From: a virus
Length of the DNA: 40,997 bases
Virus genome (UHGV): UHGV-0123923
Strand: one strand, 5' to 3'
Within the stretch, counting starts at the first letter, position 1; each line of letters opens with the position of its first letter. Below are positions 7,204-37,596 of the stretch, one piece after another. The notes under the pieces are model-generated. The model did not search any database and had not been told where the DNA came from. It worked only from the letters and a program-made list of their open reading frames with translations. The position numbers and the translations under genes were made by a program.

Positions 7204-7232
7204 ACTATAATAGCTAACTATTCGGGTGTCAA
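7204..7232 (-). promoter_or_regulatory. sigma70-like promoter (TTGACA-N17-TATAGT) with operator motif
   Basis: -35 is the reverse complement of 7227..7232, -10 of 7204..7209; AATAG(7209..7213)-CTAA-CTATT(7218..7222). Confidence 0.45.
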
Positions 7233-9608: not shown

Positions 9609-9637
9609 AACTATAATAGCGAACTATTCACTTGTCA
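9609..9637 (-). promoter_or_regulatory. sigma70-like promoter (TTGACA-N17-TATAGT) with operator motif
   Basis: -35 is the reverse complement of 9632..9637, -10 of 9609..9614; AATAG(9614..9618)-CGAA-CTATT(9623..9627). Confidence 0.5.
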
Positions 9638-9641
9638 ATGG

Positions 9642-9671
9642 GCTTTTCTAAAATAATTAATATGGTACTAT
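9642..9671 (+). promoter_or_regulatory. operator motif with weak promoter upstream of the Cro-like gene
   Basis: AATAT(9658..9662)-GGTA-CTATT(9667..9671); TACTAT -10 at 9665..9670; poor -35 (TTTTCT). Confidence 0.35.
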
Positions 9672-9702
9672 TCACATATCAACTGACTAAGGAGTAATTG
9701 GC

Positions 9703-9918
9703 ATGCAACCATCTGAACTAGGTATCCGTGTAGAGCAACGCCGTAAAGAACTCGGTATCTCCCAGCGCCATCTGGCTGTCCTGGCCGGTGTTTCCCAAGG
9801 CGCAATTAACCAGCTTGCACTCGGTGTAACTCAGGACGTCCGCCCGGCGACGCTGTTTAAACTGGCGGAAGTGCTTGAAGTAGACGCCAAGTGGCTGTCG
9901 TTCGGTGAAGGGGCTTAA
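9703..9918 (+). CDS. XRE-family helix-turn-helix regulator (Cro/CI-like)
   Basis: 71 aa; AAGGAG RBS; HTH signature LGISQRHLAVLAGVSQGAINQLALG. Confidence 0.8.
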   Translation: MQPSELGIRVEQRRKELGISQRHLAVLAGVSQGAINQLALGVTQDVRPATLFKLAEVLEVDAKWLSFGEGA

Positions 9919-12393: not shown

Positions 12394-12451
12394 GTTATAT
12401 TTCCTTCAGCAAGTAATTTGGCCTCGGCGTTCACCGCGTCGGGGCTTTCTT

Positions 12452-12727
12452 TTATTCCAGGTCGCGGGAGATATTACCCTCGGGCACCAACACTTTTCCA
12501 ATACTTCTCGCTTTCTCTGTAATAGGCGTCGCTCTTGTTGCCCGATAAAACTTTCCTTTATTAAGAATCTCACCATGTCGCTCGAGCACATCTAAAGCAT
12601 GTTTGATCGGGTTTACACCGTAATTATCCAACCGGTATCTCCGAAGCCCGTCTACCGTAAAAGCGCCGTTCGCTTCGGTCAGTCTGCGTGCACACATTAA
12701 TATGTGTTTCTGGAATTTAGTTAGCAT
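12452..12727 (-). CDS. hypothetical protein (~91 aa)
   Basis: start placed at the ATG behind a TAAGGAGA RBS; the longer upstream extension in the ORF track is likely spurious. Confidence 0.4.
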   Translation of the reverse strand: MLTKFQKHILMCARRLTEANGAFTVDGLRRYRLDNYGVNPIKHALDVLERHGEILNKGKFYRATRATPITEKARSIGKVLVPEGNISRDLE

Positions 12728-12896
12728 CTTTAACGTTCTCCTTAATCCACGCCTCCACAGTAGCGCGGTCAAAGGTACCTGGCTGACGGTAGCCGTTGAT
12801 AACGCGGCAACACTCCGGGAACTTTCCTGACCGAAGCCAGCGATTAAGAGTCATAGGGGAAACCCCGATTAAGTCTGCTACTTCTTTCTGTGTCAT
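12717..12896 (-). CDS. AlpA/excisionase-like small HTH DNA-binding protein
   Basis: start placed at ATG (MTQKEVADLIGVSPMTLNRWL) behind a GAGAGGG RBS; first gene of the primase operon. Confidence 0.55.
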   Translation of the reverse strand: MTQKEVADLIGVSPMTLNRWLRSGKFPECCRVINGYRQPGTFDRATVEAWIKENVKDAN

Positions 12897-12925
12897 TTTA
12901 CGCGCCCTCTCTATCAAGTGAAACA

Positions 12926-12954
12926 ACTATAACACCTACAATAGACAAACACAA
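12926..12954 (-). promoter_or_regulatory. candidate promoter of the primase operon (TTGTGT-N17-TATAGT)
   Basis: -10 is the reverse complement of 12926..12931; AATAG(12940..12944) and CTATT(12956..12960) arms flank the -35. Confidence 0.3.
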
Positions 12955-12958
12955 CCTA

Positions 12959-12986
12959 TTGACAAAATAAAATGTAGCTGTAAAAT
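12959..12986 (+). promoter_or_regulatory. candidate rightward promoter (TTGACA-N16-TAAAAT)
   Basis: TTGACA 12959..12964, TAAAAT 12981..12986 preceded by TG; AT-rich surroundings. Confidence 0.4.
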
Positions 12987-13053
12987 CAACGTATCGAATG
13001 GCTTTAGTTAAGAATTACTTAGAAACAATATTCTTAAGTCTCGGGTACTTAAA

Positions 13054-13073
13054 GCCCCGCCATAAAGCGGGGC
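13054..13073. other. conserved GC hairpin element, copy 1 (GCCCCGC-CATAAA-GCGGGGC)
   Basis: 7 bp perfect stem; same stem and flanks recur inverted at 24547..24566. Confidence 0.5.
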
Positions 13074-13317
13074 GCTAAATAGTACTCTTGGTAACGTTAG
13101 TATCTAAGTTTCCTCAAAGTAACAGCAAGTGGCAAGAAAGCCCCCGTCTATTTAAATTTTACCCTCCTTCATAAGCCACTGATAATTAAAAGTTTCTATA
13201 GTTGCCGTAAACGTGGAAGAGAGTACTTCACTTCGCTGGGGTGGGCTAACGCCCACCCACTGCGTTGCGTACTCTTTTAAGAAACGAAAGAATCACAACG
13301 GCAACGTAACTATTCTC

Positions 13318-13346
13318 TTGCACACCCCAACATAATAGGATACTAT
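13318..13346 (+). promoter_or_regulatory. promoter (TTGCAC-N17-TACTAT) with operator motif, for the rightward small-gene block
   Basis: TTGCAC 13318..13323, TACTAT 13341..13346; AATAG(13334..13338)-GATA-CTATT(13343..13347); ~36/39 nt identical to the reverse-strand promoter at 33012..33040. Confidence 0.55.
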
Positions 13347-13380
13347 TCACTTATCGAAACGAGACAGAGGAGTGAGGGTT

Positions 13381-13572: not shown

Positions 13573-13772
13573 TGGAAGAATTATTTGAAGAACTGAAACA
13601 TCATGATTTCGAGGAAATATATTTCGTAGCTGAACGCTACGAGGTGCATTTATCGGACGGGATTACAATTATTACGATGGATAGCCAGCAAATGCTAAAT
13701 AGCTTACAGGCAATCAAAACGGCATCGAATCGTGATGCTTGTGCCGACGACTCTGAGGGAGGTTGCCGTTAA
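13569..13772 (+). CDS. hypothetical acidic protein (67 aa)
   Basis: ATGA start/stop overlap with the upstream gene. Confidence 0.5.
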   Translation: MMEELFEELKHHDFEEIYFVAERYEVHLSDGITIITMDSQQMLNSLQAIKTASNRDACADDSEGGCR

Positions 13773-13951
13773 TGCGAATCCGTATAACTGACCGCAGGCT
13801 TGTCCGTATAACTGACCGCAGGCTTATAGATTTCGGTATCTCGGTAGGTGATGTTTTTCCGGCGTTCAGCATCAACCATTATGGTTTTATGATTGAGTAC
13901 AAAGGGTCGTTATTGTTCGTGTATCGGGATGAATGTGAGGTTCTGGTATGA
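13772..13951 (+). CDS. hypothetical protein containing an 8-residue tandem peptide repeat
   Basis: ATG behind GAGGGAGG RBS; 24 bp tandem duplication encodes RITDRRLV-RITDRRLI. Confidence 0.45.
   Translation: MRIRITDRRLVRITDRRLIDFGISVGDVFPAFSINHYGFMIEYKGSLLFVYRDECEVLV
13780..13827. repeat. 24 bp tandem direct repeat, 2 copies, 23/24 identical
   Basis: CCGTATAACTGACCGCAGGCTTGT then CCGTATAACTGACCGCAGGCTTAT, read directly. Confidence 0.85.
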
Positions 13952-14611: not shown

Positions 14612-14640
14612 TTGCACACTGGGATAGAATAGGCTACTAT
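14612..14640 (+). promoter_or_regulatory. promoter (TTGCAC-N17-TACTAT) with operator motif
   Basis: TTGCAC 14612..14617, TACTAT 14635..14640; AATAG(14628..14632)-GCTA-CTATT(14637..14641). Confidence 0.55.
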
Positions 14641-14670
14641 TCATTTACACGAGCGAGAGGAGAGACAGAG

Positions 14671-17312: not shown

Positions 17313-17525
17313 TGGGCGAATACGAAGGCGTTTAGTATTCTGGTTAGGCCAAGTTTTTCGTATTTGCCAATGGAGGCCGTTATGGCACTGCAAGAGTTCA
17401 CCAACCCAGTTAAATCTCGTGACGATATTGACGAGCAGGTCGGTTACGGCGAAGGTTGACACCTAAGACTAATCCGACGATACTTAAATCACCTCCTGTT
17501 CCATCCCTCTGCTCTCCAGTTTTAT

Positions 17526-17556
17526 CCCGGCCCTGACCCAGCCGGGATTTTTTTTA
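17526..17556 (+). terminator. intrinsic terminator after the lysis genes
   Basis: CCCGGC-CCTGACCCA-GCCGGG followed by ATTTTTTTTATC. Confidence 0.65.
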
Positions 17557-17577
17557 TCTATCTTCCGCAATGACTAG

Positions 17578-17606
17578 TTGACTATTACTCTCACACCAAT
17601 TATATT
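17578..17606 (+). promoter_or_regulatory. promoter (TTGACT-N17-TATATT)
   Basis: TTGACT 17578..17583, TATATT 17601..17606; ACTATT half-site overlaps the -35. Confidence 0.5.
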
Positions 17607-17639
17607 TACTCCATCGACAACGAGAACGGAGTAGAGAAA

Positions 17640-17780
17640 ATGAAAATCACAGACATCGAAGCATTCAAAGACGCACAACTGATGGCACGCATCGCCGTTA
17701 GTAACCTGAGCAACAGCATTCCAGCGGACGCGTTCTGGTTCGCTGCGATGCAGACACTTAAAGCAGCTTACGCAGGAGAG
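17640..17780 (+). CDS. hypothetical small protein (46 aa)
   Basis: GGAG RBS; ATGA coupling to the next gene. Confidence 0.3.
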
Positions 17781-24275: not shown

Positions 24276-24323
24276 TGCCTGTGATTATTCCAGTTATTCC
24301 ACTCAATTGTAAATGTTGGAATA

Positions 24324-24366
24324 AACTATTCGAATAGTTGACTTTTCACCAAAAATGTGCTAAGCT
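24324..24366 (+). promoter_or_regulatory. promoter (TTGACT-N17-TAAGCT) preceded by a perfect 16 bp palindrome AACTATTCGAATAGTT
   Basis: palindrome 24324..24339 overlaps the -35 (24338..24343); -10 at 24361..24366 preceded by TG. Confidence 0.45.
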
Positions 24367-24546
24367 CCACCTGAGCTTGTGAAGTATGAACAAGCGACCG
24401 CGGCGCGGGCAGGTAACGGAGCGGGACGTAAGTCCTGAGTGTAGTTACGCTGACGCGTTCGGAAGGGCCATACTCTATTGCTTGTGTAAAAAGTAACTTG
24501 TTTACTGAGATTACGCCGTTTCTATGTTTAAATGATAAGGACTAGC

Positions 24547-24566
24547 GCCCCGCTTTAAGGCGGGGC
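24547..24566. other. conserved GC hairpin element, copy 2 (GCCCCGC-TTTAAG-GCGGGGC), terminator-like on the + strand
   Basis: same stem and flanks as 13054..13073 in inverted orientation; followed by TTTACTT; 24 nt upstream of the Rz start. Confidence 0.5.
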
Positions 24567-24590
24567 TTTACTTATCGAGAAAGGGGAAAC

Positions 24591-30581: not shown

Positions 30582-31136
30582 TTACAAACCTAATTTTAAA
30601 GCAATGTCTACAACGTTCGATTTAACGTCACCCGGTATGATGTATGTGTCGTAATCTTTTACACCGCTAACATCATACAGATACTCCCTGCTATCGCCGA
30701 TGAACGTATAGCCGTCTCGGTGCAAGCGAACGATTCTTACATCATGACCTGCGGCGACGATAGGGGCTACTTCGCTGGCGAACCCGCCATCCGACACTAC
30801 AAAAACGTCATCGCCGTCGGGCAAGTTTTCAGCAAGATACTTACCGAAATAATCGCTGCCGAGAACCGGTTTAATGAATTGCTCAGATATAGCAATCATG
30901 AACTGACGCCGCGACAAGCCATTAAGGAAGCCTTCTGGCTTTTCTTTCCGCGCCCGGTCGTCGTAGCCGTCGAGAAACTCGTGGTAAGCATCCGGGCCTA
31001 ACGCCGCCAGAGCGATATTGAACATTGGATTCTTGAAACTGGTAGTTCCTTTCGCAAAGCCCATTTCTACCAGCGCCATAGCAAGTGTGTCTTTCCCACA
31101 ACCCGCCGGGCCATTAAGAATAATTACCTTAGCCAT
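30582..31136 (-). CDS. P-loop kinase, dNMP-kinase-like (GKDT Walker A)
   Basis: 184 aa; ILNGPAGCGKDT resembles the T4 gp1-type dNMP kinase P-loop (from memory); start overlaps the upstream stop (TAATG). Confidence 0.55.
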   Translation of the reverse strand: MAKVIILNGPAGCGKDTLAMALVEMGFAKGTTSFKNPMFNIALAALGPDAYHEFLDGYDDRARKEKPEGFLNGLSRRQFMIAISEQFIKPVLGSDYFGKYLAENLPDGDDVFVVSDGGFASEVAPIVAAGHDVRIVRLHRDGYTFIGDSREYLYDVSGVKDYDTYIIPGDVKSNVVDIALKLGL

Positions 31137-31624
31137 TATTTATCGCTCCCGTGTGATTTTAAGTGTGTAGAGTTCCCGTTACAGTCGTATTCAGTAACCG
31201 CGTGGGTGGTTATACCGAGTCCGCGGAAATGCTTTATTACCGCTGGAGAGTCGTCGAATGCGCACAAGATTCTCTCCAGCCCAATAGCACGCAACACCTC
31301 TTCTTTAATTACGATGTCTTTTCTGATGTCGTGTTTGCTGCGCATTAACAGAACGTCGAACTTGACATTGTTTTTACGTAACCACTCACGAGTTTCTTCC
31401 TCGGCGTCGTCGCTTCGCCCGGTAAGGATGATTATGGTAATCCCGGTATGCCACAGCGTGTTGCACAAGTGAATGTTGTCATATATCGGCGCATCATCTT
31501 TGCACGCCATGTTAAAAGGCTTCCACGCCCATGTTTCGTTGTAGTTATCTTTCGGCAGCAGGTGTAAACGATGTGTACCATCCGCCAATGTTCCATCTAA
31601 ATCGAAAATCACAATATCTTTCAT
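31136..31624 (-). CDS. HAD-family phosphatase, polynucleotide-kinase 3'-phosphatase-like
   Basis: 162 aa; catalytic FDLDGTL, then TGR and DIRKDIVIKEE...AFDD motifs in the order I recall for the T4 Pnk phosphatase domain. Confidence 0.55.
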   Translation of the reverse strand: MKDIVIFDLDGTLADGTHRLHLLPKDNYNETWAWKPFNMACKDDAPIYDNIHLCNTLWHTGITIIILTGRSDDAEEETREWLRKNNVKFDVLLMRSKHDIRKDIVIKEEVLRAIGLERILCAFDDSPAVIKHFRGLGITTHAVTEYDCNGNSTHLKSHGSDK

Positions 31625-32751
31625 CCCAGCATCTCCGGTGAAATAGTTAAACGTGCGACCTCGCCATATTCGGCGCTATAAGTAATTACATTTGCACTAC
31701 GGCCTGACATCCATCCGCCGCGAGAGGCATATGCATCTTTAGCCGCTAGGGTGCGGTGTTGCTCAACAATCATGTTACGGCTTTCTACAATCTTCTGATG
31801 GTGCAGGTGGCCTACGTGAGCGTAACTGTAAACGCTCTCGCCGAACGCTTTACGGAACTTGGCAATCATAACCGGTTCGATAGCGTCGAATCGCGCCTTA
31901 TGCCCGTGGTGAAAGAACAACGTAGTTTTGCCGTGTTGGACCATCTTGTAAACATCCGGCGACGTATCGACGAACACACGAGGCTCATTGTCGTACAGCG
32001 TACTGAACATCTCAGCTAACCAAATCATTCCGCTTTCGTCATGGTTCCCTTGCACAATAAGCAAGCGAACATTTTTATGCTTAACCAGCGCCATATCAAT
32101 AACACGGCGGACCATACGAATCATGTAGCGTACAAGTTTCTGATAGCGCGTGTCGGCGTCAAGAACATGACCGCTTGCGGGTGTAACTGCATCCAGACTA
32201 TCGAAGTGAGCGAGGTCGCCCAGCAGATTAATAACTCCTGTTCCTGCATCCGGAGCTTTCTGGAACGCAGCATCGAACCACCGAGAGAACAGGTCTTCTG
32301 CAATCTTCATATCCCAGTCGTCGCCGCTCTCGTCGGCCCAGGCCAGCATACCGAGATGGAAATCAGATACCGTGTAAAGATTGAGTAGCTTGTCGTCACG
32401 TTTGTCCCGTGCAGGTTTAACAGGTGCAACTGGCGTAATCTCTGACTTCATGCCTTCGATTACGGCTTTCATCAACTCGACCTGACGTTCTGCATCGGTG
32501 TCGGTCTTAACCCATTGCAGTTTAGTGTTGCCAAACTCATCAACCAGTGACGACGTTCCTTTAATCTTGTAGCCATCCGGCACAAGGTGACTAACGTCAC
32601 GCCCGTGACCTACGCCTTTCTTTGCCAATTTCGCTTTACGGATACGAATTACGCGGTCTGAGATGCCGTATTTACGGGCGATGTCTACATTCTTCATCCC
32701 GGCGTTCAATTCTTCCTGTAACTGTTCGTCGGTTATTTTCTTCTGGGCCAT
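31621..32751 (-). CDS. calcineurin-like metallophosphoesterase with N-terminal HTH domain
   Basis: start moved to ATG (MAQKKITDEQ) behind GAGGAAG; metallophosphatase motifs DFH, GDLAH, GNHDE, HHGH, GHLHH; HTH-like N-terminus KNVDIARKYGISDRVIRIRKAKL. Confidence 0.6.
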   Translation of the reverse strand: MAQKKITDEQLQEELNAGMKNVDIARKYGISDRVIRIRKAKLAKKGVGHGRDVSHLVPDGYKIKGTSSLVDEFGNTKLQWVKTDTDAERQVELMKAVIEGMKSEITPVAPVKPARDKRDDKLLNLYTVSDFHLGMLAWADESGDDWDMKIAEDLFSRWFDAAFQKAPDAGTGVINLLGDLAHFDSLDAVTPASGHVLDADTRYQKLVRYMIRMVRRVIDMALVKHKNVRLLIVQGNHDESGMIWLAEMFSTLYDNEPRVFVDTSPDVYKMVQHGKTTLFFHHGHKARFDAIEPVMIAKFRKAFGESVYSYAHVGHLHHQKIVESRNMIVEQHRTLAAKDAYASRGGWMSGRSANVITYSAEYGEVARLTISPEMLG

Positions 32752-32789
32752 GCTTACTTCCTCGTGTTTAGGATTTGTCTTATAGTAGC

Positions 32790-32981
32790 CTACTTCTCTT
32801 TCACGTTCGAGTTGCAAGCCCAGATTAAAATAAATACCCACGGCAGCAGAACCCAACCAAGAAACAGATTAGCCATGAATATTGCCAACTTCGCTTTATG
32901 GTTACGGAAGTACGCAACCAGGAAAGGCGCGAAATAAGCGAGCAGCGCAAACAGAATTAAAGAAACCGGTAAACTGGACAT
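32790..32981 (-). CDS. small two-TM membrane protein resembling superinfection immunity (T4 Imm-like) proteins
   Basis: start at second ATG behind AAGGGG; PFLVAYFRNHKAKLAIFMANLFLGWVLLPWVFILIWA matches the pattern I recall for the Imm_superinfect family. Confidence 0.45.
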   Translation of the reverse strand: MSSLPVSLILFALLAYFAPFLVAYFRNHKAKLAIFMANLFLGWVLLPWVFILIWACNSNVKEK

Positions 32982-33011
32982 TTTAAACCCCTTCATTGTT
33001 GGTGTAAGTGA

Positions 33012-33040
33012 ATAGTACCCTATTATATTGGGGTGCGCAA
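33012..33040 (-). promoter_or_regulatory. promoter (TTGCGC-N17-TACTAT) with operator motif, driving the reverse-strand accessory cassette
   Basis: -35 is the reverse complement of 33035..33040, -10 of 33012..33017; AATAG(33011..33015)-TACC-CTATT(33020..33024); near-identical to promoter 13318..13346. Confidence 0.5.
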
Positions 33041-33148
33041 GTAATGTGATAGAATAATTTTGCGCCTAGTGTCGCACACGAAAAGCGGGTGGTTCCCGTC
33101 TGGCGCATTTATCGTTAACCTGTAACCTCTTAACCAAAGGATTAAAGA

Positions 33149-36196: not shown

Positions 36197-37596
36197 TGAG
36201 CGACTTATATTTCCCACGTAGCCTTAAGCCAATTGTATCGAAAGGCTACTCAATGACCAGACGTAACAACGTCTGGAGTGTAGATTTAGCCGGTGGCGGG
36301 GTGCGTCAGGGCCGTGACACGTATTACGACGTGTTCCCTGTTAGCGTAACCCTGATTACATCCGCAATGGGGCGACAGGCGTTTCTGTCGTTCCTCGAAA
36401 AAGTAGACGGCGGTGCGTCAAGTTTCTGGATGGCGCACGACTTCGGCATGGGCATCGAAGATTATCAGGTAACCATTACGTCCACTATCGCCGAGTCCAC
36501 CGAAGACGGGATTAACTGGACAATCACCTTCACGGCAACCGCCGAGAAATCGCCGTTCCAGGACCTTGAGAACCAGTGCCTGATTAACAATCTGCCAGAT
36601 TTGTACGGCTGTTACGGGGATTGTCTGGGTAGTTTCCTGAAAATATACGCGAACTATGAGACGACATTCCCTCGCATCTGGAGCGACGAAGGTCCTGCCG
36701 GATATCCGCCGATTAACATGCTGGCATCTACGCTTGATAGCCGCATTGTTTATGAGGGACCACAGGTTTATTACATCAACCGCAATGGTAATCTTGTACA
36801 GTCCGCCGCCAATGAATGGCCTCTTACGTTTATTGACGGGGTTGCCGCCGGGCGCGTGCCACCAGAGGTATCAGTAACTAACAGATTCCTATATTCAAGC
36901 AATTTCTCTTCGTCAAACTGGAACAAAGGTTTGGTTAGTGTATCAGTATCTGAAACAGGTGTTTTAACAGCCGCGGGCACGTACGACGTAACTGCTACCG
37001 CCACAAGCGGTAACCACCTAATAAACCAGACTGTAGATGTTAGCGTCGGTGTTGGCGACAAGGTGACTTTTAGTTTCTTCGCAAAAGCAAACGGATACAA
37101 TTTCATACGGATGTACGTGCGAGAACTTCCTACAGCATTAGGCTCAGCAGTTGTAGATTTGCGGGATGGTAGCATTTATTCCGGCCCAGGCGGTACAGAT
37201 GTAACCGACGTAGGCGGAGGGTGGTTCCGAATATCGGAGACGGTCAACGCGACAGAAGATAAAACAATGAGCATACGGATGGACGCATGGATATATTCAG
37301 ACGGAGTTACCGGGACATTTACGGGGGATGGCGTTTCAGGGATTAAATTATCCGCGGCTACTGTAGAGGTAAACCAAAATACAACATCACCAATAATTAC
37401 GGCGGCGTCTCCTGTAACACGCCCCGCGGCATCGGCAAAAGTAGTAATGAACGGCGCAACAAGCATCGGCATTACCTACTCCGACGGCTCTGTGGTAGAC
37501 GTTCAGGCTGTTGACGGTTACGCCACCATCCCACAGGCGGATTCTGCGTGGGGTAGTAAATACGTCACCCGTATTGATTTTAATGTGGACGGTTAA
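36196..37596 (+). CDS. distal tail protein candidate with large C-terminal extension
   Basis: 466 aa directly after the tape measure (ATGA overlap); Thr/Ser/Gly/Val-rich C-terminal region suggests beta-sandwich or carbohydrate-binding modules. Confidence 0.45.
   Translation: MSDLYFPRSLKPIVSKGYSMTRRNNVWSVDLAGGGVRQGRDTYYDVFPVSVTLITSAMGRQAFLSFLEKVDGGASSFWMAHDFGMGIEDYQVTITSTIAESTEDGINWTITFTATAEKSPFQDLENQCLINNLPDLYGCYGDCLGSFLKIYANYETTFPRIWSDEGPAGYPPINMLASTLDSRIVYEGPQVYYINRNGNLVQSAANEWPLTFIDGVAAGRVPPEVSVTNRFLYSSNFSSSNWNKGLVSVSVSETGVLTAAGTYDVTATATSGNHLINQTVDVSVGVGDKVTFSFFAKANGYNFIRMYVRELPTALGSAVVDLRDGSIYSGPGGTDVTDVGGGWFRISETVNATEDKTMSIRMDAWIYSDGVTGTFTGDGVSGIKLSAATVEVNQNTTSPIITAASPVTRPAASAKVVMNGATSIGITYSDGSVVDVQAVDGYATIPQADSAWGSKYVTRIDFNVDG

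Follow-up and report, generated by a model that had tools for sequence, protein, structure and literature searches.

Organization of the locus

The window analyzed here is the whole stretch of 40,997 nucleotides (nt) of UHGV virus genome UHGV-0123923, a Kagunavirus (Guernseyvirinae) whose segment 12500-13800 is 97.9% identical to Escherichia phage K1G. This work concerns the gap between its leftward replication operon, in which a helix-turn-helix (HTH) gene adjoining the gap accompanies the helicase-primase gene, and its rightward operon. A previous sequence-only reading had proposed that 12927-13371 (445 bp) is noncoding and holds a candidate replication origin or, alternatively, a noncoding RNA. 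The noncoding gap was confirmed, as the list of open reading frames (ORFs) contains only mechanical ORFs of 26 to 40 amino acids (aa) inside it, and by the likely true starts of the flanking genes it extends over 12897-13380 (484 bp). The 445 bp are 100% identical to positions 36652-37096 of K1G, where they are unannotated, and no similarity of the gap to Escherichia coli genomes was found. Most likely, the gap is a control region between the two operons that consists mostly of a noncoding RNA cassette.

Two promoters stand back to back at the left end of the gap (Table 1). The rightward one, P1, was anticipated by the sequence-only reading and recovered by the scanner with 11 of 12 matches to the sigma-70 consensus, a score that only two other sites in the window reach. 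The leftward promoter proposed opposite it reaches 8 of 12 matches by eye but lies below the scanner threshold; it is plausible because comparable promoters (TTGATT-17-TATACT or TTGCTT-17-TATACT) occur at the equivalent place in relatives carrying other module types, described below. The AT-rich segment reported at 12960-13050 has a GC content of 0.297 versus 0.511 for the window, and coincides with P1 and the 5' hairpin of a predicted RNA.

This RNA, named RNA-1, would start at P1 and comprise a 5' hairpin, a two-tier hairpin 1, a core and a long hairpin 2. The 5' hairpin is perfect only in the window and K1G, the other variants of its type having one mismatch. One of the two GC hairpins of the earlier reading lies exactly where it was placed, within the two-tier hairpin 1, which has a 28-nt inverted twin at 24543-24570. 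The other, given as 13240-13259, was located at 13238-13258 within a long stem (13217-13278) that folds with a z-score of -6.0 versus shuffled controls. The minus-strand GAAGGAGGG, described as a likely ribosome-binding site lacking a following start codon, does occur at 13163-13171, and its complement on the plus strand, CCCUCCUUC, is the C/U-rich stretch of the predicted RNA. This stretch belongs to the core, whose consensus is (G)UCUAUU - C/U-rich stretch - yAAGynaCUGAU - UUUCUwwA - kUGCCGUA and whose UCUAUU is predicted to be mostly unpaired (0.69 vs. 0.40 overall). The composite core motif occurs in the window only here and at 24475-24519.

The window gave no Rfam match at gathering thresholds (best in the region, E value of 1.1 and approximately 15 to 20 bits, far under the cut-offs), nor did six loci of other module types (E values up to 1), and ARAGORN found no transfer RNA or transfer-messenger RNA.

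Table 1. Coordinates in the window of the features of the gap and of related elements.
Feature	Position	Strand	Sequence, basis or remark
HTH gene (HTH_17 protein, 12717..12896), start	ATG 12896	leftward	GAGGG ribosome-binding site
Candidate leftward promoter of the HTH and helicase-primase operon	12926..12954	-	TTGTGT-17-TATAGT; by eye 8/12, under scanner threshold; back to back with P1
P1, near-consensus sigma-70 promoter	12959..12986	+	TTGACA-16-TAAAAT; scanner, 11/12 matches; predicted start ~12993
RNA-1, predicted noncoding RNA or leader, ~290 nt	12993..13282	+	5' module type A and 3' module i; fold z -3.5; putative ends
5' hairpin	13008..13037	+	UUAAGAAU...AUUCUUAA; folding
Two-tier hairpin 1	13043..13087	+	outer GGGUACU/AGUACUC, inner GCCCCGC/GCGGGGC at 13054-13073; z -3.5
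Conserved core, common to all module types	13146..13208	+	GUCUAUU, C/U-rich stretch (CCCUCCUUC, 13163-13171), AAGCCACUGAU, UUUCUAUAG, UUGCCGU
Long hairpin 2	13217..13282	+	lower stem AAGAGAGUAC/GUACUCUUUU, GC top 13238-13258, into UUUU; terminator-like 3' end of atypical geometry
Invariant block	13288..13311		GAAGAATCACAACGGCAACGUAAC / GAAGAAUCACAACGGCAACGUAAC; identical or nearly so in all 52 regions
P2 with inverted-repeat operator	13318..13349	+	TTGCAC-17-TACTAT; (T/G)AATAG-N4-CTATTC at 13333-13348
Conserved 5' untranslated region and ribosome-binding site of first rightward gene	13353..13380	+	GAGGAGUGAGGG; sequence and relatives
First rightward gene, start	ATG 13381	+
Six copies of the P2 motif	7207-7224, 9613-9630, 9657-9674, 13332-13349, 14626-14643; 33009-33026	+ (first five); - (last)
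RNA-2, paralogous unit	24338..24575	+	directly upstream of the i-spanin gene (24591)
RNA-2 promoter	24338-24366	+	TTGACT-17-TAAGCT (TTGACTTTTCACCAAAAATGTGCTAAGCT)
RNA-2 structured leader, ~200 nt	core 24475-24519; terminator 24547-24566	+

Modular conservation across 52 homologous regions

We compared the gap with 52 distinct homologous regions retrieved from IMG/VR, metagenomes, and GenBank. They share one plan, in which a divergent HTH gene is followed by a TTGAC(A/T)-type promoter, 230 to 300 nt that lack a conserved ORF, a GC hairpin whose U-rich tail is present on the plus strand only, an invariant block of about 24 bp, and usually P2. Length and layout are retained in all 52 variants and in both genera. 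The P1 pattern TTGAC(A/T)-17-TAAnnT (with a spacing of 16 in the type of the window) recurs, with unrelated spacers, in no fewer than 50 of the 52 regions, and the -35/-10 spacing of two type D variants is ambiguous.

Within this plan the sequence is modular. Four unrelated 5' modules, of which the window carries type A, and three 3' modules, of which it carries module i, are joined by the common core and found in nearly all combinations. Hairpin 2 is replaced in other phages by two unrelated GC hairpins with U-rich tails, again on the plus strand only: module ii is a canonical terminator, flagged by the scanner in locus L113, and module iii has an interrupted U-rich tail. P2 is degenerate in L020 and L039, and in L113, a Jerseyvirus-like locus, it is missing and another promoter occupies its place after the terminator. 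In every case, a separate promoter for the first rightward gene follows the terminator, also where P2 has been replaced. L113 is filed under a nonenterobacterial genome, the Taishania pollutisoli assembly (NZ_JACVEL010000022.1), a placement that probably reflects contamination or a mis-binned phage.

Two candidate explanations of the region were rejected. A four-segment attenuator, formed by the four arms containing GTAC (13043-49, 13081-89, 13217-27, and 13269-78), was discarded because the 5' modules are freely recombined with the 3' modules and the combination of type C with module i has no upstream partners. A genome end or packaging site was considered because several records and contigs begin near the gap; these breaks are spread over more than 1 kb, as expected of arbitrary or assembly breaks and not of a packaging site.

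Noncoding nature, strand, and conserved folds

The conserved unit is not a gene for a protein, as no ORF is conserved in frame or position across the loci. The longest frame (88 to 98 aa, on the minus strand of some type B loci) is interrupted by stop codons in 8 of 14 loci, indels of nontriplet length occur, and the (CTCA)n run found in module iii varies by nontriplet units. Candidate hidden genes, namely, the ORFs of 34 aa and 26 to 28 aa in the window, those of 35 to 36 aa annotated in Snoke and Shashou, and the 88- to 98-aa minus-strand frame, were dismissed as unconserved.

The folds, on the other hand, are maintained by compensatory changes. In type B, the 5' domain forms a long hairpin whose 35 pairs are 96.8% paired, 9 of them showing compensatory change; the observed score was not matched by any of 500 shuffles, with slid controls at 33 to 45%. 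Type C has 21 pairs (96.5% paired), one of which occurs as UA, CG, and AU, and here too none of 500 shuffles reached the covariation score. Because of G·U pairs, the plus strand fits these structures better than the minus strand (96.5% vs. 82.5% for type C and 96.8% vs. 91.6% for type B), and L019 has a G·U pair compatible with the plus strand only. The terminator stems likewise underwent replacement or compensation, from GGGCAGGC/GCCUGCCC to GGGCAGGU/GACCUGCCC and from GGUGCC-UUCG-GGCACC to GGCCCC-UGC-GGGGCC, and retained their tails. Folding each type A variant separately shows that L084 and L095 retain the two-tier hairpin 1 with altered sequences in both the outer and the inner stem.

A paralogous unit upstream of the spanin and capsid genes

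The second occurrence of the core belongs to a paralogous unit, RNA-2, which consists of a promoter, a structured leader, and a terminator. A stretch of 129 nt covering its promoter and 5' domain is 91.5% identical to the type C RNA at the early locus of L014, its core reads CTATT..ACTGAGAT..GCCGT, and its terminator, flagged by the scanner, is the inverted twin of hairpin 1. RNA-2 is present at 95 to 99% identity in 179 of 181 matching phage records. On one side of it lies an immunoglobulin-like head gene that has a separate terminator, and on the other lie the genes for i-spanin, scaffold, and capsid. A 36-aa ORF annotated there in Shashou is broken by one-base indels in several relatives. 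No other promoter or leader is visible for the spanin, capsid, and tail genes. Since no promoter lies between the RNA-2 terminator and the spanin ATG, RNA-2 must be a 5' leader whose terminator is leaky or overridden.

Immediately upstream of RNA-2 (24285-24337), we noted two copies of TTATTCCA (24285 and 24294), one of TGGAATAA (24317), and a palindrome, CTATTCGAATAG (24326), abutting the -35 element. Judged by sequence, this looks like a regulated late promoter.

The noncoding RNA locus, named earlier as the alternative to an origin, has therefore gained support from several sides: the promoter kept in nearly all regions, the terminator-like hairpins on the plus strand, the lack of a conserved ORF, the compensated stems, and the paralogue. 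The same evidence bears on the explanation that the gap has no dedicated function, in which a promoter junction and insulating terminators would separate divergent operons and the remaining sequence would be filler kept by mosaic recombination. The shuffling of modules among phages agrees with this, as do the wholly different sequences between the conserved elements of different types and the fact that hairpin 1 repeats, in inverted orientation, a terminator used at another place. Against it, length and layout persist in 52 of 52 variants of both genera, and internal, nonterminator stems covary. Moreover, the core motif is common to all types and to the second locus, and the noncoding stretch is better conserved than the HTH gene adjoining the gap (approximately 70% nucleotide identity across relatives). 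We regard a lack of function as improbable.

P2, its operator, and the invariant block

The right end of the gap is its most conserved part. Among E. coli and Salmonella phages, the 84 bp at 13288-13371 retain 94 to 100% identity, also in those whose downstream protein is only 35 to 50% identical. The invariant block at the start of this segment, which could be a protein-binding site, keeps 23 of 24 positions in L113 despite the replacement of P2 there. Its ACGGCAAC is also predicted to be able to pair with GUUGCCGU (13202-13209) across hairpin 2.

The second rightward promoter of the earlier reading, P2 (13318-13346), stands as a site that is weak against the sigma-70 consensus (7 of 12) and forms part of a repeated motif. 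The "operator half-sites" of that reading were too vague to test as worded, but an inverted repeat does overlap the P2 -10 element. The 18-nt center of P2, ATAATAGGnTACTATTCA, has six copies in the window versus 0.04 expected. Those at 13332, 14626, 33026 (minus strand), and 9657 overlap a TACTAT -10 element, and those at 9613 and 7207 lie in the spacers of leftward TTGACA-17-TATAGT promoters. The latter two promoters and P1 are all the 11/12 sigma-70 matches in the genome, P1 being the only one of the three without the motif. Two copies precede a lone plus-strand gene for an XRE-type HTH protein (9703..9918) located within the leftward operon. The same motif has been described seven times in phage fBC-Eco01 and ascribed to a phage RNA polymerase (PMC9825357). 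An operator of a dimeric phage repressor would be a simpler reading than a phage-polymerase promoter, and the motif probably marks a phage repressor regulon.

One of these copies lies beside a gene of separate interest. The minus strand at 32790-32981 encodes a membrane protein of 63 aa that contains a superinfection-immunity domain (PF14373), and its expression is predicted to be driven from a P2-type promoter with an operator copy at 33005-33041.

A proposed replication origin in the gap

The origin was the first proposal made for the gap. Transcription from P1 through the AT-rich structured region would activate or prime synthesis by the phage helicase-primase and polymerase, with the invariant block or the TGCCGT/ACGGCA inverted repeat as the recognition site. 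The location suits this proposal, as the gap adjoins the replication operon where transcription diverges, and so do the low GC content of 12960-13050, the cumulative G-C minimum at 13355, the retention of the invariant 24-bp block even without P2, and the presence of ACGGCA/TGCCGT three times in about 100 bp.

The cumulative GC-skew check that had been suggested does place its minimum inside the gap. Nevertheless, both leftward gene blocks have a negative skew (-0.098 and -0.095) and the three rightward ones a positive skew, so that its sign tracks the gene strand in all five blocks, including the distant leftward block at 30582-32996. The minimum falls here because gene orientation switches here, and the GC-skew test therefore cannot discriminate an origin; in such genomes, a skew minimum at a point of divergent transcription is no evidence for one.

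The other observations add no specific support to an origin. In the region, we detected no iterons, DnaA-box clusters, or repeat arrays, no repeat family of more than two copies, and no k-mer cluster above background. Two variants lack TGCCGT. In relatives with the same helicase-primase, unrelated sequence takes the place of the left two thirds of the region, which is unexpected for the site of a conserved initiator; a highly folded RNA ending at terminator-type hairpins does not favor a persistent RNA-DNA hybrid, and a homologous unit is found in the capsid gene cluster. The only Pfam match of the helicase-primase itself was AAA_25, no structurally solved relative was found, and the protein gave no clue to its mode of origin binding. 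Taken together, an origin at this place seems unlikely to us. A cluster of CGTATAC at 38.8 to 39.1 kb was also considered and set aside, as it lies within an apparent long ORF that runs off the end of the window and is absent from the ORF tool list.

A proposed promoter-leader-terminator cassette and a possible stand-alone small RNA

The reading that we favor, with a probability of about one half, is a promoter-leader-terminator RNA cassette that feeds or gates the rightward operon and yields a short RNA as a by-product. Host RNA polymerase would start at P1 and make a folded RNA of about 290 nt, built from a 5' hairpin domain, a conserved core that is partly single-stranded (UCUAUU ... ACUGAU ... 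GCCGU), a long GC hairpin, and a short U-run. Some polymerases would stop at hairpin 2 and free the short RNA, and the remaining ones would pass the invariant block and P2 into the rightward genes, for which P2 would be a separate, operator-controlled promoter. The RNA family would thereby act as a promoter-proximal leader with a leaky or overridden terminator (attenuation or antitermination), and the conserved core may be the site of action for a factor or for the polymerase itself. The sequences show the layout and its conservation, the paralogy, the conserved folds, their strand, and the absence of coding, and we infer transcription itself, the RNA ends, the leakiness of the terminator, and the mechanism in cis; a cassette acting in cis is preferred because the paralogue RNA-2 must act in cis.

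Nearly as likely, although we advance it only tentatively, is an independent small RNA acting in trans. P1 would produce an abundant early RNA of about 290 nt ending at hairpin 2, whose core or C/U-rich stretch would pair with or sequester a host or phage target, and P2 alone would drive the rightward genes. The architecture is of the small-RNA type, with a structured 5' domain, a conserved and partly unpaired core, and a terminator hairpin, the last being canonical in module ii. Furthermore, P2 or another promoter always follows the terminator, and several module types contain a C/U-rich stretch resembling an anti-Shine-Dalgarno sequence. A target, on the contrary, was not found. Complementarity to the P2 5' untranslated region and its ribosome-binding site is at chance level (p of 0.1 to 0.5), antisense matches elsewhere in the phage do not exceed 11- to 12-mers, and E. 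coli genomes lack similarity to the gap, as stated above. RNA-2, in addition, cannot be exclusively a stand-alone RNA because the spanin gene has no other promoter.

A more specific role of the RNA, as an antisense or anti-ribosome-binding-site regulator of the P2 mRNA, was rejected with RNAduplex and a longest-complement test (modules of the window, z of -0.2 and p of about 0.5 versus shuffled sequences). For module iii the result against the P2 5' untranslated region is only suggestive (z of about -3 in one test and p of about 0.1 in the other). This module, in L029, L002, L009, and others, carries a (CTCA)n run upstream of its GGUGCCUUCGGCACC hairpin, mostly with three units and with six in L029. 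The first rightward gene has GAGUGAG in its conserved ribosome-binding site, and the run is complementary to this sequence with borderline significance.

It is important to consider what weighs against the cassette that we prefer. Hairpin 2 of the window is a compound stem of 62 nt with only four U residues, which the scanner did not flag, and is no textbook terminator. The covariation of type A is thin: only seven sequences are available, the automatic alignment shows no compensatory pair, and one internal helix has a single compensatory variant against two disruptions. The free exchange of 5' and 3' modules opposes any long-range switch between the two, and an independent small-RNA gene would account equally well for a P2 directly behind the terminator. 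No antiterminator protein or alternative antiterminator fold was identified, and only two HTH proteins were recognized as regulators near the gap among eight window ORFs tested. Expression data at this resolution were not found for the phage group, the one RNA-sequencing paper being at gene level. Our literature search likewise returned nothing on transcripts, noncoding RNAs, or origins in this phage group, nor transcription start site or Term-seq data for Guernseyvirinae.

A bolder version of the cassette, which we consider doubtful, is an undescribed modular family of cis-acting RNAs in Guernseyvirinae with two members per genome, one for the early rightward operon and one for the spanin, capsid, and tail genes. 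Its core would drive terminator read-through in the manner of put or nut elements, with a new fold and possibly a new factor. If true, this would provide early-to-late timing for a virulent siphovirus without an RNA polymerase of its own.

Relation to known systems

The closest layout is that of the lambda PR' cassette, in which the 194-nt "6S" RNA ends at tR', a terminator read through after modification by Q. In both, here by prediction, a strong promoter for the host polymerase precedes a noncoding unit a few hundred nucleotides long with an intrinsic terminator at its end, behind which lies a long operon, and RNA-2 likewise stands ahead of lysis and structural genes. Unlike in lambda, no Q-like gene or qut-type site was identified here, and the phage is virulent. 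Also different are the conserved, covarying leader folds and core, the two paralogous copies, and the second promoter that follows the early copy. At both loci of the window, the element lies between the promoter and the first terminator of the operon, as do the two related RNA elements of HK022 (putL/putR) and lambda (nutL/nutR). In HK022 put, the function resides in the RNA fold and not in a protein, which would hold here too. However, sequence or Rfam-level similarity is lacking, the units measure 200 to 290 nt versus about 70 nt, and neither boxA/boxB (by eye) nor the two-stem put architecture was recognized; antitermination here is a proposal. The cassette is consequently no member of the lambda PR', put, or nut families, because their defining motifs were sought and not found.

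Promoter-dependent origins, such as the T7 primary origin, T4 oriF/oriG, and ColE1 RNA II, resemble the gap in that a promoter precedes an AT-rich or structured stretch beside replication genes, in a phage with its own helicase-primase and polymerase. They differ in that the transcript predicted here ends in terminator hairpins, that no unwinding element or primase-site cluster was identified, that the sequence is not conserved alongside the replication proteins, and that a homologue lies in the capsid operon. Lambda OOP, P22 Sar, and the P4 CI RNA are also short, discrete noncoding units of early phage control regions. These RNAs of 70 to 200 nt are antisense to, or processed from, a known target, whereas no target complementarity was found here.

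In the genomes of the approximately 180 phages of E. coli and Salmonella sequenced from this subfamily, the stretch is unannotated or given spurious small ORFs. Many such phages have been proposed for therapy or are used as engineering chassis, and for those who modify them, "empty" gaps of this kind should not serve as neutral insertion sites. The conserved RNA cassette and its second copy offer a handle on the timing of gene expression by host polymerase alone, and they represent a candidate RNA family that is absent from Rfam.

Additional observations

Three further features were noted outside the gap. The 63 bp directly before the helicase-primase start (12401-12463) are 100% identical in many otherwise divergent loci and contain a terminator-like hairpin on the plus strand (12420-12446 plus TTCTTTTATT) that faces against the replication operon. 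A perfect 24-bp tandem duplication at 13779-13825 (TCCGTATAACTGACCGCAGGCTTG, twice) doubles eight codons of the small ORF 13763..13951. Finally, the segment at 17456-17640 has a layout that resembles the plan of P1, RNA, terminator, and P2. There, a sigma-70-like promoter (TTGACA-17-GATACT) leads into a C/U-rich stretch of about 65 nt that includes CACCUCCU; a strong terminator (CCCGGC...GCCGGGAUUUUUUUU) comes next, and another promoter (TTGACT-17-TATATT, at 17578) stands before the gene at 17640.

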